A DNA stretch of 64,000 nt from Beijerinckiaceae bacterium (GTDB lineage Bacteria > Pseudomonadota > Alphaproteobacteria > Rhizobiales > Beijerinckiaceae). The translations under genes and the position numbers were made by a program. Below are positions 44,408-52,527 of this stretch, one piece after another (the first letter of the stretch is position 1; the number at the start of each line of letters is the position of its first letter). A model generated the notes under the pieces. That model made no database searches, was not told the DNA's origin, and was given only the letters and a program-made list of their open reading frames with translations. The stretch covers positions 114,030 to 178,029 of the forward strand of contig WSYC01000012.1 in NCBI GenBank assembly GCA_009773635.1, written 5' to 3'.

Positions 44408-45571
44408 GTGGCGATCGACCTTCGCGGCACTGTGAAGCGGTTCCTCGACTGGCGTCAGCCGGGGGGCGCGCTGTCGGTCGGGGCGCATACGCTGCTCCTC
44501 GTTGCGAGCGTCTATGCCTTCAATTCCGCGCAGCCGTTCCAGCCGGCGACCGAGGCGCTTGCGGTCGATGTCGTCTCGGAAAAAGATTTCAACGAGATGA
44601 TGAAGGGCGACAAGACCTCGAAAATCATCGCCAAGGAACCCGAGCGCCGCGTCGACCGCGTGGCGGAAATCAAGGATGACAAGGACCCCGGCGTTGAGAA
44701 GAAGGACGTGCCCGTCGCCCCCTCGAAGCAGGAGGCGAAATCCGAGCCCGAACCGAAACTTGCCGCCATCGTGCCGCCGACGCGCCCGCCCGAACTGCGC
44801 GTGACGCCGCCAACGCCCAGCCCGCCGGTGAAGGCCGAGGAAGACGACGAGATCGACGAGAAGGCCGAATTGTTGCGCCGGAAGAAGATCGAGGATCAGA
44901 AAAAGGCCGAGGATGCTGCCAAGGCGGCGGCGGAGGCCAAGCGCAAGCTCGATGAGAAACTGAAGGCGGACGCGCAGGCCAAGGCAGCCGAGGACAAGAA
45001 GAAGCTTGATGATGCCCTGAAAGCCGAGGCGGAGGCTGAAAAACGCGCCGAGGACAAGCGCAAGGCCGACGAGAAGAAGGCGCGCGAAGACAAGGCGAAG
45101 AAGGAACAGGCCGCGAAGGAAGCAGCAGAGGAAAAGGCGCGCAACGACCGCATCCGGAATGTCCTCAATCAATCGAAAGAGCCGGCGGCCTCAACGGGCG
45201 CGACCGGGGCTGCTGTTGCAAGCCGGTCAACGGCGGGGACTGCGACCGCGACAGGAACCAAATTGTCGCCAAGTCAGCTTGGACAGCTCGGTGAGATTCT
45301 CAAAGAACAGATGGAGAGATGCCTCTCCGTTCCGTCGGGCATAAATCCCAAAACAAAGCCGATCGCGCTGATCTATTTCAATAGAGATGGGACACTTTCC
45401 GGTGCTCCGATCTTGCAGAACAGCTCCGCCGAGCCAGCATTTCGAGTTCTCGCAGAGGCCGGTATTCGTGCTCTGCGACAATGTCAGCCTTACAAAGTTC
45501 CTGATCGCTTCATGAGTGCCTTCGAACAGTGGAAGGTCACCACCATCTTCATCTCGCGTCCCGACAATTGA
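44408..45571 (+). CDS. tolA: Tol-Pal system protein TolA
   Basis: N-terminal TM with S...H motif, Lys/Glu/Ala-rich helical domain, C-terminal domain with a C...C pair; position between tolR and tolB. Confidence 0.9.
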   Translation: MAIDLRGTVKRFLDWRQPGGALSVGAHTLLLVASVYAFNSAQPFQPATEALAVDVVSEKDFNEMMKGDKTSKIIAKEPERRVDRVAEIKDDKDPGVEKKDVPVAPSKQEAKSEPEPKLAAIVPPTRPPELRVTPPTPSPPVKAEEDDEIDEKAELLRRKKIEDQKKAEDAAKAAAEAKRKLDEKLKADAQAKAAEDKKKLDDALKAEAEAEKRAEDKRKADEKKAREDKAKKEQAAKEAAEEKARNDRIRNVLNQSKEPAASTGATGAAVASRSTAGTATATGTKLSPSQLGQLGEILKEQMERCLSVPSGINPKTKPIALIYFNRDGTLSGAPILQNSSAEPAFRVLAEAGIRALRQCQPYKVPDRFMSAFEQWKVTTIFISRPDN

Positions 45572-46948: not shown

Positions 46949-46951
46949 CCC

Positions 46952-47053
46952 CGTGACAAGCGGCATGATCGGGGCTACGGCTGCGGCCAATGCCCGGCCT
47001 GCGAGCTGCGCGCGAACGGTTTTTCGCGGTATCTGGCACTGAGGCAGCGTTGA
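46952..47053 (+). pseudogene. queC: 3'-terminal relic of 7-cyano-7-deazaguanine synthase
   Basis: Translates [33 protein letters not shown], matching the QueC C-terminal Zn motif (H.WGYGCG.CPAC.LR..G). No start codon and the upstream ~200 aa are absent. Confidence 0.8.
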
Positions 47054-47115
47054 AACAGGGTGGCTGATCCCTCAAAGCTCCAAGGCATCGCGCCGGGGCC
47101 AAAGCGAGACAAATC

Positions 47116-47682
47116 ATGACGACAATCGAGAACTTGCGCCGCCGCGAAGGAATTCTGTTCCTCATCGCCTTCACCGCCTGCGTGCCTGCTGCCAACTGGT
47201 TGATCCAGAATGTCGGCACCTTCTGCGTCCCGAACGGTCCCTGCCTCATCCCCGTCGCACCGGGTTTGACTGCCCCAAGCGGTGTGCTGCTGGTCGGTAT
47301 CGCGCTGGTGCTGCGCGATCTCGTGCAGCGGCGGCTGGGGTTGAACTGGGCCTTTGCGGCCATCGCTTTGGGTGGGCTTCTCTCGGCGCTCTTCGCCCCG
47401 CCGGCGCTGGTGGTGGCGTCCGTTGCCGCATTCCTGCTGTCGGAAATCGTCGATCTCATGGTGTTCACGCCGTTGCAGCGGCGCGGGCCGGTGGTGGCTG
47501 CGGTCGTGAGCAGCCTTGTCGGGCTCGTAGTCGACAGCATCGTGTTTCTCTGGCTGGCCTTCGGCGGGCTTGAGTTTCTCACCGGGCAGATCGTCGGCAA
47601 GGCGCTGATGGTGCTGATCGCCATCCCCGTTCTCGCCTGGATCCGCACGCGCGATGCAAGGCTGGGGATTGCACCAGCTTGA
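47116..47682 (+). CDS. VUT family (YhhQ-like) queuosine-precursor transporter
   Basis: G..LVLRD.VQ..LG, AS..AFL.SE..D..VF..L, S..VG..VDS..FL.LAFG; multi-TM. Confidence 0.82.
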   Translation: MTTIENLRRREGILFLIAFTACVPAANWLIQNVGTFCVPNGPCLIPVAPGLTAPSGVLLVGIALVLRDLVQRRLGLNWAFAAIALGGLLSALFAPPALVVASVAAFLLSEIVDLMVFTPLQRRGPVVAAVVSSLVGLVVDSIVFLWLAFGGLEFLTGQIVGKALMVLIAIPVLAWIRTRDARLGIAPA

Positions 47683-48462: not shown

Positions 48463-49386
48463 ATGGTCAGGATGATCCGCTTCTCTCGTGCTGCATTCAC
48501 GCTCATCGCCCTTTTCGTTGGGGCGATGCAGTGTGTCACGATCGCCCGTGCGCAGGATGCTGCGGATTTCATCCTCCGGCTCGACCGGCTGGAGGCGGAA
48601 AACCGTCGCCTCACCGGGCAGGTCGATGAGTTGAAATTTCAGCTCAGACGGCTTGAAGATCAAATCAAGCGCTTCCAGACCGATTCGGATACGCGCTTCC
48701 GCGATCTCGAAGGCAATCGGGGCGGCATCCGGCCTGCCCCCAATGCCGGCCAGCCCGTACCGGGTCCGGTCACGCCGCAGAAGCGGTCCGATGCGTTCGA
48801 TCCTGCCACGTCAAATACAGCGCCCGGCGCACCCCGCCCGCTCGGTTCGACCGGCGTCGCCACGCCGCCCGGCGCTCCTCTGTCGGCCGGCACCCTGCCG
48901 CCCGGTGGTCGGCTGGTACAGGATGGTGAACTCGGCGCGCCGCTCGATGTTTCCGGCCAGCGGCGCCCGCCTGTCCCGCCGCCGGTGACGGATATGCCAC
49001 GCGGCGATGCCAAATCGGACTTTGATTTCGCCAAATCCCTCGTCGATCGCGGCGATTACGAACTCGCGGAAGGGGCTTTCAAGGATTACATGCGCACCTA
49101 CCCGAAGGACCGGCGCGTCCCCGATGCCACGTTCTGGCTCGGCGAGAGCTATCTGCGGCGCACGCGCTACCGCGAAGCTGCAGAACATTTCCTGACGGTC
49201 ACCAGCAAATATTCCAATGTGCCCAGAGCCCCGGAGGCGATGCTCAAGCTCGGCATTTCCCTGCGCGGTCTTGGCGCGATCCAGGAAGCCTGCGGCACCT
49301 TCGCGCAGGTCGGCAAGAAATATCCCAATGCATCGGCTGCCATCAAGCAGGCGGTCGAGCGCGAGAGGGGCCGGGCACAGTGCTAG
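48463..49386 (+). CDS. cpoB: Tol-Pal protein YbgF/CpoB
   Basis: Signal peptide, coiled coil, TPR domain with A.FWLGESY and APEAMLKLG.SL. Confidence 0.93.
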   Translation: MVRMIRFSRAAFTLIALFVGAMQCVTIARAQDAADFILRLDRLEAENRRLTGQVDELKFQLRRLEDQIKRFQTDSDTRFRDLEGNRGGIRPAPNAGQPVPGPVTPQKRSDAFDPATSNTAPGAPRPLGSTGVATPPGAPLSAGTLPPGGRLVQDGELGAPLDVSGQRRPPVPPPVTDMPRGDAKSDFDFAKSLVDRGDYELAEGAFKDYMRTYPKDRRVPDATFWLGESYLRRTRYREAAEHFLTVTSKYSNVPRAPEAMLKLGISLRGLGAIQEACGTFAQVGKKYPNASAAIKQAVERERGRAQC

Positions 49387-50332
49387 ACGACGAGGACAGC
49401 GGCCTGATCGACCAGCTTCCTCTGACAGCGGAAGAGGCTCTGGCGCTGCTGCGTGGCGCGCTGGGCAGCGACGATTGCTCCGGCATCCTGCTGTGTGTTT
49501 CCGGTGGCCCTGATTCGATGGCCATGCTCGGGCTGTGTGCGGCGGCGCGCGCCTATCTTCCTCCCCTCGCGGTCGCTACCGTCGACCACGGTTTGCGGGC
49601 CGAATCGAAGGATGAAGCGGCATTCGTCGCGGATTTCTGCCGCGAGCTCGAACTGCCGCATTGCACGCTTATCTGGACCGACGGGCCTTCCGGCGCGGTC
49701 AATCAGGAAACAGCCCGCAAGGGGCGCTACGCGCTGCTCCTGAGATCGAGCGCGGCCCGATGCGGCATATCCGGCCGTTTCTGGAAGTGCCCAAGACCCG
49801 CCTCGTCAGCACCTGCACCCAGAACAACTGGCTCTACGCACGGGACCCCTCCAATCAGGACCCGCGCTTTACCCGCACCCGCATGCGGGCGCTGATGCCA
49901 ATTCTCGCCGGCGAAGGGCTGACAAACGAGCGGCTTGGAACACTCGCCGCGCGCGCCCGCCGCTCCGAAGATGCCCTCGATCATGTGGCGCGGCGCTCCG
50001 TGGAAAGCGCGATCATCCGCCGCGCGCCGGACGGCGGCGCGATCCGGCTGAAGGCCGACCCGTTCTATACCGAGCCTTTCGATCTCGCACTTCGGATGCT
50101 CCGGCGCTCGATGCTGGCGATCGGCGGCGAAAATGATCGGGAACTGCAGATCTCTTTGGCCAAGCTCGAACGCCTGCTCAAGAACCTGCGGATGGCGATC
50201 CGGGATCAGCGGCCGTTCCGCCAGTCGCTGGCCTGGACGGTGATCGCTCATGGCGGCGGGTATCTCGAGGTGCGCACAGCGCCTCCACGCCGCAGCACCA
50301 AAGGCACTGAACGCGCCGCCGGAAAGCGCTGA
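49380..50332 (+). pseudogene. tilS: tRNA(Ile)-lysidine synthetase with internal deletion and frameshift at about 49740
   Basis: Frame 1 carries VSGGPDSMAM, VDHGLR and ARKGRYALL. The sequence then shifts frame into IRPFL.VPK.RL and DPSN.DPRF.R.R.R. The H..DDQAET/RGSG segment between them is absent. Confidence 0.85.
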
Positions 50333-50376
50333 ATGCGATGAAATTAACCGGCAGGACGCGAAAAGATTTCGCGCTT

Positions 50377-50405
50377 CTTGGCAATTGGTTCTGCCACGCC
50401 TAAAT
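50377..50405 (+). promoter_or_regulatory. RpoH (sigma32)-type promoter of ftsH
   Basis: CTTGGC-16 nt-CCTAAAT, resembling CTTGAA-N16-CCTATAT. Confidence 0.5.
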
Positions 50406-50473
50406 ACTCTTCCAGATACGGGCGTTTTCCGGCCTCTGCCGGAAGCCCAAGGAACCGGTGAGACGCCCCCTCC

Positions 50474-52396
50474 ATGAACCCGAATTTCCGCAATATTGCC
50501 CTTTGGGCCATCATTCTCCTGCTGGTTCTCGCGCTGGTGTCGGTTTTCCAGAGCCCGTCCACGCGATCCGCCGGGCATGAAATCCCCTATTCCGCGTTCG
50601 TCGACAGCGTGGAAAAGGGCAAGGTTGAACGCATCATCACGTCCGGCTACGACATTCAGGGCGCCTTCAACGATGGTTCCGGCACTTTCCAGAGCTACGG
50701 GCCAGTGGACGAGAAGCTGCGGGAGAAGATGCGGGACAAGGGCGTGAACGTCTCCTACCGCTCCCCGAACGCGGACACCCCGTGGTACATGTCGCTGATC
50801 ATGAACTGGCTGCCGCTGGTGTTTTTCCTCGGCGTGTGGATCTTCATGTCGCGCCAGATGCAGAACGGTGCCGGCCGCGCGATGGGTTTTGGCAAATCGA
50901 AGGCCAAGCTGCTGACCGAAGCCCACGGCCGCGTGACCTTCGAGGATGTTGCGGGCATCGATGAAGCCAAGGAAGACCTGCAGGAAATCGTCGAATTCCT
51001 GCGCGACCCGCAGAAATTCCAACGCCTTGGCGGGCGCATTCCGCGCGGCGTGCTGCTGGTTGGTCCGCCGGGCACGGGTAAAACCCTCACCGCGCGTGCG
51101 GTTGCCGGCGAAGCCAATGTGCCGTTCTTCACGATTTCCGGCTCGGACTTCGTGGAAATGTTCGTCGGCGTCGGCGCGTCCCGCGTTCGCGACATGTTTG
51201 CGGAAGCGAAAAAGAATGCACCCTGCATCATCTTCATCGATGAAATCGACGCCGTCGGCCGCCATCGCGGTGCTGGCCTCGGCGGCGGCAACGACGAGCG
51301 CGAGCAGACGCTGAACCAACTCCTCGTCGAGATGGACGGCTTCGAGGCCAACGAGGGCGTGATCATCATCGCCGCGACCAATCGCCCCGACGTTCTCGAT
51401 CCGGCGCTGCTGCGTCCGGGTCGTTTCGACCGCCAGATCGTGGTGCCTCTGCCGGATGTCAACGGCCGCGAGCGCATCCTGCGCGTCCATTGCCGCAAGG
51501 TGCCGATGGCACCGGACGTCAACCTGAAAACGCTTGCCCGCGGCACGCCCGGCTTTTCGGGCGCGGACCTGATGAACCTCGTCAACGAAGCGGCATTGCT
51601 CGCCGCGCGCCGCAGCCGCCGCCTCGTCACGCACCTCGAGTTCGAGGACGCGAAGGACAAGGTGATGATGGGTGCTGAACGCAAATCCATGGCGATGTCT
51701 GCCGAGGAAAAGAAGAATACAGCCTACCACGAGGCCGGCCACGCGATCATCGCGCTCAAGGTGGCGGGCATCGACCCGATCCACAAGGCAACGATCATCC
51801 CGCGCGGCCGGGCACTCGGCATGGTGATGACCCTGCCGGAGAGCGACCGCTACTCGATGTCGCGCGAGAAGAGCCTCGCCCGGCTGGTGATGCTGTTTGG
51901 TGGCCGCGAGGCCGAAATCATCACCTTCGGGCCGGAAAAGGTCACCAACGGTGCGACCGGCGACATCCAGATGGCGACCGGCCTTGCGCGCGCCATGGTG
52001 ATGGAATGGGGCATGAGCGAGCGGCTTGGCCGCGTGCGCTATGCCTCGAACCAGCAGGAAGTGTTCCTCGGGCATTCGGTATCGCAGACCACCAACATGT
52101 CCGATGAAACCGCCAAGCTGATCGACGAGGAAGTCCGCAAGTTGATCGAGGAAGGCGAAACCGCCGCCCGCAAGATCATCACCGAGAACAAGGATCAGTT
52201 TGTCGCGATCGCCGAAGCCCTGCTCGAGTTCGAGACGCTGACCGGCGATGAACTCCGCGCTCTCATGGACGGCAAGCGTCCGACGCGTGAAGACCCGGAC
52301 GAACCGGCCACGCCGCGCGGTTCCGCCGTGCCGACCTCCGGCAAACCGCGTCCGCCCGAAGCCGAAGGCGGCATGGAGCCGCAGCCGCAAGGTTAA
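50474..52396 (+). CDS. ftsH: ATP-dependent zinc metalloprotease FtsH
   Basis: Two TMs, [17 protein letters not shown], second region of homology, HEAGH. Confidence 0.99.
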
Positions 52397-52435
52397 ATTC
52401 CGCTGAGCAAGGCTGAATCGCCTGGAACTGACAGC

Positions 52436-52460
52436 AAAACGGGCCTTAAGGGTCCGTTTT
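52436..52460. terminator. Terminator after ftsH
   Basis: aaaacgggcc-ttaa-gggtccgtttt. Confidence 0.6.
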
Positions 52461-52527
52461 CTGCATTTGAGGACAAGACTTGCCTGACAGGTCCGAATGC
52501 GGCAAGGCAATCGGGTGGGTATAGGGG

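Follow-up and report, generated by a model that had tools for sequence, protein, structure and literature searches.

The frameshifted tilS gene of a Rhabdaerophilum-like MAG: a probable scaffold-join error

The tilS locus and its lesion

The stretch of DNA that was analysed (64,000 nt; hereafter the window) carries the gene order tolB - yhhQ (Vut_1) - pal - cpoB - tilS - ftsH, which is the usual alphaproteobacterial block. The tilS gene is preceded by cpoB/ybgF (TolA_bind_tri plus TPR; 48463..49386, plus strand) and followed by ftsH (50474..52396, plus strand). It is present in two parts that are read in different frames. The 5′ part (49380..49744, plus strand) corresponds to codons 1-121 plus 2 nt; its frame starts with the GTG at 49380, includes the PP-loop ATP-binding motif SGGxDS in the form SGGPDS, and runs to ...RKGRYALLL. 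The 3′ part (49745..50332, plus strand) corresponds to codons 165-359 plus the stop, and lies in a different frame from the 5′ part. Here the homologous TilS reading continues after the junction as EIERGPMRHIRPFL..., with the stop codon at 50330-50332, and the NCBI record holds a 190-aa protein derived from this part. The two parts meet at 49744..49745 (plus strand), and the 127 nt that should lie between them (tilS nt 366-492) are lacking, at what would be a silent scaffold join. No microhomology was found at this junction.

The same gap was seen with the family profiles. PF01171 matched at positions 2-88 in the 5′ part and 137-181 in the 3′ part, and TIGR02432 at positions 2-91 and 142-185, respectively; about 48 profile positions (89-136) are missing between the two halves. 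The H-x-x-DDQ-x-ET block, which occupies about these positions, is absent from the window copy of tilS. With TIGR02432 the two frames scored 58.3 and 33.6 bits, both below the curated cut-off of 93.6. Relative to the intact allele described below, the missing 127 nt amount to 42 codons plus 1 nt and encode SHARTIDASHIATAHTLDDQAETVLMRMASGSGMTGLGAMRPN, including HTLDDQAET; when the closest species (about 78% nt identity) was used as the reference, the window tilS was again shorter by exactly 127 nt. These results confirm an earlier note on this DNA, made from the sequence, in that tilS is frameshifted and lacks the H..DDQAET segment, and its estimate of 40-45 missing amino acids, or ~130 nt, was accurate. 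The note had also placed the junction at 49739-49742; the two halves do join in this region, although the exact position is 49744|49745. A second tilS, or the missing segment at another place in the genome, had been suggested as worth a search, and neither is present: the 127 nt were not found in the rest of the genome, and its 35 contigs hold no other PF01171 gene.

The minus strand opposite tilS and ftsH contains an open frame of 927 codons (49727-52510), which is a high-GC shadow ORF and not a gene.

Intact alleles and contig ends in other assemblies

Other assemblies covering this locus were fetched via the exact products of two anchor genes, cpoB (307-aa) and ftsH (640-aa). The exact cpoB product was found on four other contigs, and the exact ftsH product was also found on other contigs. 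An intact 359-aa tilS is present in two other metagenome assemblies, on ERZ27284380:k139_127521 and Logan SRR8863439_72712. The intact allele carries HTLDDQAET and scores 153.3 bits with TIGR02432, against the cut-off of 93.6. The window tilS equals this allele minus nt 366-492, with 0 mismatches over the remaining 953 nt: the 5′ part is 100% identical to nt 1-365 and the 3′ part to nt 493-1080, so that the description of both halves as undecayed in the earlier note holds. The flanks differ from those of the intact-tilS contigs by at most 1 mismatch in >8.7 kb.

Intact TilS was also found among relatives. Three sister strains (three further runs, 96.5-98% nt identity) have a 360-aa TilS, and all same-genus genomes with a match show one continuous PF01171 hit over positions 2-181. 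Among named relatives, the intact TilS protein is closest to that of a Rhabdaerophilum MAG (81% identity). The underlying gene is an ordinary TilS (TIGR02432/PF01171) of the short alphaproteobacterial form, in the usual tol-pal-cpoB-tilS-ftsH neighbourhood, from which the window copy differs in that profile positions 89-136 are lost and the remainder is out of frame.

In the assemblies in which tilS is not intact, contigs end at the junction. ERZ27284375:k119_355090 stops exactly at tilS nt 365 (window 49744), and ERZ27284375:k119_399401 begins within the missing segment, at tilS nt 375, and continues through ftsH. Logan SRR8438314_7871 stops at tilS nt 363 (window 49742). Among the other assemblies compared, no contig passes directly from the 5′ part to the 3′ part. 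Assemblies without an intact tilS break at this stretch instead of reading across it, in samples that may have reads or a library in common with the sample of the MAG itself. In exact-product look-ups, no other record contained the 171-aa ORF product that spans the junction. Likewise, no record was obtained for hypothetical partial TilS products with a start at codon 165 or 166, or for the hypothetical product of a middle unitig (codons 83-164). All of these look-ups rely on guessed gene calls and are for this reason uninformative. An exact search of JGI metagenome contigs with 34 nt of the left flank gave no match.

The start of k119_399401 lies exactly 118 nt (k-1, MEGAHIT) before the right junction (9 + 118 = 127), and the window can be written as k119_355090 followed by k119_399401 minus its first 118 nt. 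The assembly of the window was apparently made with k=100, and we can only call this offset a coincidence at roughly the 1-4% level, left over by a model in which the contigs are dead ends. Alternatively, the join might have been made on the graph, with the assumed overlap being dropped.

Similar lesions in the MAG and the nature of the assembly

The genome was scanned for frame breaks with codon log-odds trained on its long ORFs, a break being a point at which the coding signal switches to a different frame of that strand while the stop codon of the first frame is still far downstream. The scan recovered the tilS junction together with equally clean breaks in other conserved genes, at which family-profile coordinates revealed missing or duplicated positions, the case of ccoO being only probable. 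The uvrA gene is frameshifted at C6:349303|349304, where profile position 727 is followed by 759, and is exactly 89 nt short of the intact 979-aa copies in ERZ27284380 and ERZ27284375. Its flanks are 100% identical to those of the intact copies over 8144 and 2283 nt, there is no microhomology, and a Logan contig begins 1 nt inside the right junction. Judged by these sequence comparisons, the uvrA lesion is a join artefact of the same kind as that proposed for tilS.

Profile positions are also missing from maeB (C3:39119; 359 then 378, about 18 positions missing) and from an ABC-F ATPase gene (C19:86798; about 150 then about 170, about 30 positions missing). In uvrC (C5:76813; profile position 340 then 340) there is a 7-nt duplication (CGAGAAG). 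A hydantoinase/oxoprolinase is affected twice, by a small indel in the A domain (C12:55883; 128 then 133) and by a 22-nt duplication in the B domain (C12:53794; 332 then 326). In the probable case, ccoO (C26:81018), the 5′ part ends at position 181 of 219. A further clean frame break was observed at C5:146051. Apart from tilS and uvrA, the breaks are associated either with a loss of about 10-100 nt or with an exact duplication (7, 17 or 22 nt). A number of independent indels (7-130 nt) that affect housekeeping genes and are free of substitutions are unlike gene decay. They match what is produced when contig ends are abutted, i.e., a duplication where the ends truly overlap and a deletion where they are truly separated. 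The breaks in maeB, the ABC-F ATPase, uvrC, the hydantoinase/oxoprolinase and ccoO, and that at C5:146051, probably represent additional silent scaffold joins. As a possible marker of many more mis-joins, exact tandem duplications of 10-44 nt were considered and then dropped as evidence; of those with a unit that is not a multiple of 3, most lie outside coding sequence and look natural, and two or three break a frame.

The genome to which the window belongs comprises 35 contigs (3.24 Mb), is scored as 98.7% complete and 0% contaminated, and is used as a species representative. It contains 14 runs of N, each of 3-48 nt, which represent scaffold gaps whose sizes were estimated. An overlap of exactly 99 nt is shared by two of its contig ends, and C21 stops 19 nt (118 minus 99) short of the end of a k=119 contig, which is the difference expected for k=100 and k=119 unitigs entering the same repeat. 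The N runs, the 99-nt overlap and the 19-nt offset point to a short-read de Bruijn assembly in which k did not exceed 100 and contigs were scaffolded with paired ends, a combination typical of IDBA-UD. Scaffolders may also join contigs without inserting Ns, as would have happened at tilS.

Local assembly errors in MAG scaffolds, in which the consensus is not supported by even one read, were described by Chen et al. 2020 (Genome Res, PMC7111523). Several such errors occur in a genome, protein-coding genes are corrupted by them, and scaffolds from IDBA-UD are suspected to be prominently affected (PMC7111523). The MAG analysed here resembles those cases in its k=100 signature and its N-filled scaffold gaps. 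It differs in the route of identification: the published errors were recognized by missing read support, whereas here other assemblies and the recurrence of the pattern were used.

AUA decoding and the origin of the gap

The earlier note had raised the possibility that the organism decodes AUA codons in another way, and the tRNA genes and the codon usage of the whole genome were analysed. ARAGORN found 44 tRNAs, three of which have the anticodon CAU: an initiator-type tRNA with the C1/A72 mismatch, an elongator tRNA-Met, and a third one (C5:149419-149494) with a C4-G69/C5-G68 acceptor stem. The third is probably tRNA-Ile2(CAU), if the features that we take to be the E. coli identity elements apply. 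The tRNA-Ile(UAU) proposed in the note was not detected: there is no UAU anticodon among the 44 tRNAs, a set that is incomplete in this draft. ATA codons are still used: their frequency in long genes is ~0.4 per 1000 codons, and about 635 high-scoring coding segments of the genome contain them. The example given in the note, at 45341-45343, indeed lies in the open tolA frame. With tRNA-Ile2(CAU) probably kept, tRNA-Ile(UAU) and a second tilS not found, and hundreds of genes using AUA, TilS is still needed, as had been claimed, and the proposal of another decoding route finds no support.

Some other tRNAs are also absent from the assembly, namely those of the rRNA operon (Ile-GAU and a normal-length Ala-UGC), tRNA-Phe and tRNA-Ser(GCU); the rRNA operon itself is apparently absent. 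Since tRNA-Ile(GAU), tRNA-Phe and tRNA-Ser(GCU) are missing, the tRNA inventory is incomplete despite the completeness score of 98.7%. Two calls of "tRNA-Ala(UGC)" of 90-95 nt (C12:104725 and C21:30513) look like false positives.

An intact allele with identical flanks exists elsewhere, contigs end at the junction, and similar lesions recur in the same MAG; from these results we estimate a probability of about 90% that the 127-nt gap is a local assembly (scaffold-join) error in a low-coverage scaffolded MAG, and does not reflect the DNA of the organism. The lesion is almost certainly not a real feature of the organism. Of the two explanations offered in the earlier note, an assembly or clonal artefact is thus favoured by the intact alleles, the contig ends and the recurring lesions, and decoding by another route is not. 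According to this model, coverage over tilS nt 366-492 would be absent or very low in the read set of the MAG, and the assembly would have broken inside tilS, with two contigs ending there. The scaffolder would then have linked both contig ends by read pairs, presumably without inserting Ns, and the sequence between them would have been lost, leading to the frame shift. The organism, a Rhabdaerophilum-like alphaproteobacterium, would have an ordinary intact 359-aa TilS and make lysidine on tRNA-Ile2(CAU).

An alternative is that a real and very recent 127-bp deletion exists in some cells, as a minority or dead-end variant beside the intact allele, and that the assembler followed it. The fully undecayed state of both tilS halves fits such an event, and the contig ends at or near the junction in two other assemblies could be de Bruijn branch points. 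Nevertheless, in the k=119 assembly the contig ending at nt 365 does not run into the 3′ part, and the 3′ contig passes nt 493 unbroken from inside the "deleted" segment, so that this graph shows no route connecting nt 365 with nt 493. A simple graph with two alleles predicts that the downstream contig starts at nt 493 and the upstream Logan contig ends at nt 365, and was rejected as a poor fit to the observed positions (375 and 363); the Logan contig ends at both tilS and uvrA lie 1-2 nt off this prediction. The absence of the junction-spanning product from all other records also argues against a coexisting deletion, as do the at least 6 other clean indels in conserved genes, which show zero flank divergence where checked and are implausible for one lineage. 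In addition, loss of TilS is normally lethal (PMC3919564, PMC3575796). We consider a coexisting deletion improbable.

It is very doubtful that the cells from which the MAG was obtained really carry the 127-bp deletion, which would make them a free-living alphaproteobacterium that has no functional TilS and yet keeps tRNA-Ile2(CAU) and AUA codons; if this were true, AUA would be decoded by an unknown route. Least credible of all is an organism truly without TilS that decodes AUA via tRNA-Ile(UAU), a relaxed tRNA or a second enzyme: Mycoplasma mobile, with a tRNA-Ile UAU (PMC3575796), and a B. subtilis tilS-deletion suppressor strain (PMC3919564) are precedents in which the tRNA was replaced (PMC3575796, PMC3919564), and the incomplete tRNA set of the draft, which lacks the rRNA-operon tRNAs, leaves room for a tRNA-Ile(UAU), but against it stand the 44 tRNAs with no UAU anticodon, the kept CAU tRNA with its C4-G69/C5-G68 stem, the lack of a second PF01171 gene, the continued use of AUA in hundreds of coding segments, an identical population with an intact tilS, and the undecayed state of both halves. 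The likeness to TilS-independent decoders is superficial and consists of a genome without a functional tilS frame; unlike them, this genome has no detected tRNA-Ile(UAU) and keeps tRNA-Ile2(CAU), and the intact gene is found in the same population.

If the gap is a scaffold-join error, as we propose, the case offers no new biology of AUA decoding. It rather calls for caution, in that a MAG with scores of 98.7% completeness and 0% contamination contains silent joins by which essential or conserved genes (tilS, uvrA, uvrC, maeB and probably ccoO) are disrupted. If such joins were taken for gene losses, the conclusions drawn on translation, DNA repair or respiration in this lineage would be wrong.

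The window also contains a relic of queC (46949-47682). Four other assemblies share it, with 100% identity, and therefore, unlike the tilS lesion, the queC relic is not an assembly artefact. In the sister strain SRR21942386 (about 97% nt identity), queC is retained directly upstream of the Vut_1/yhhQ gene.
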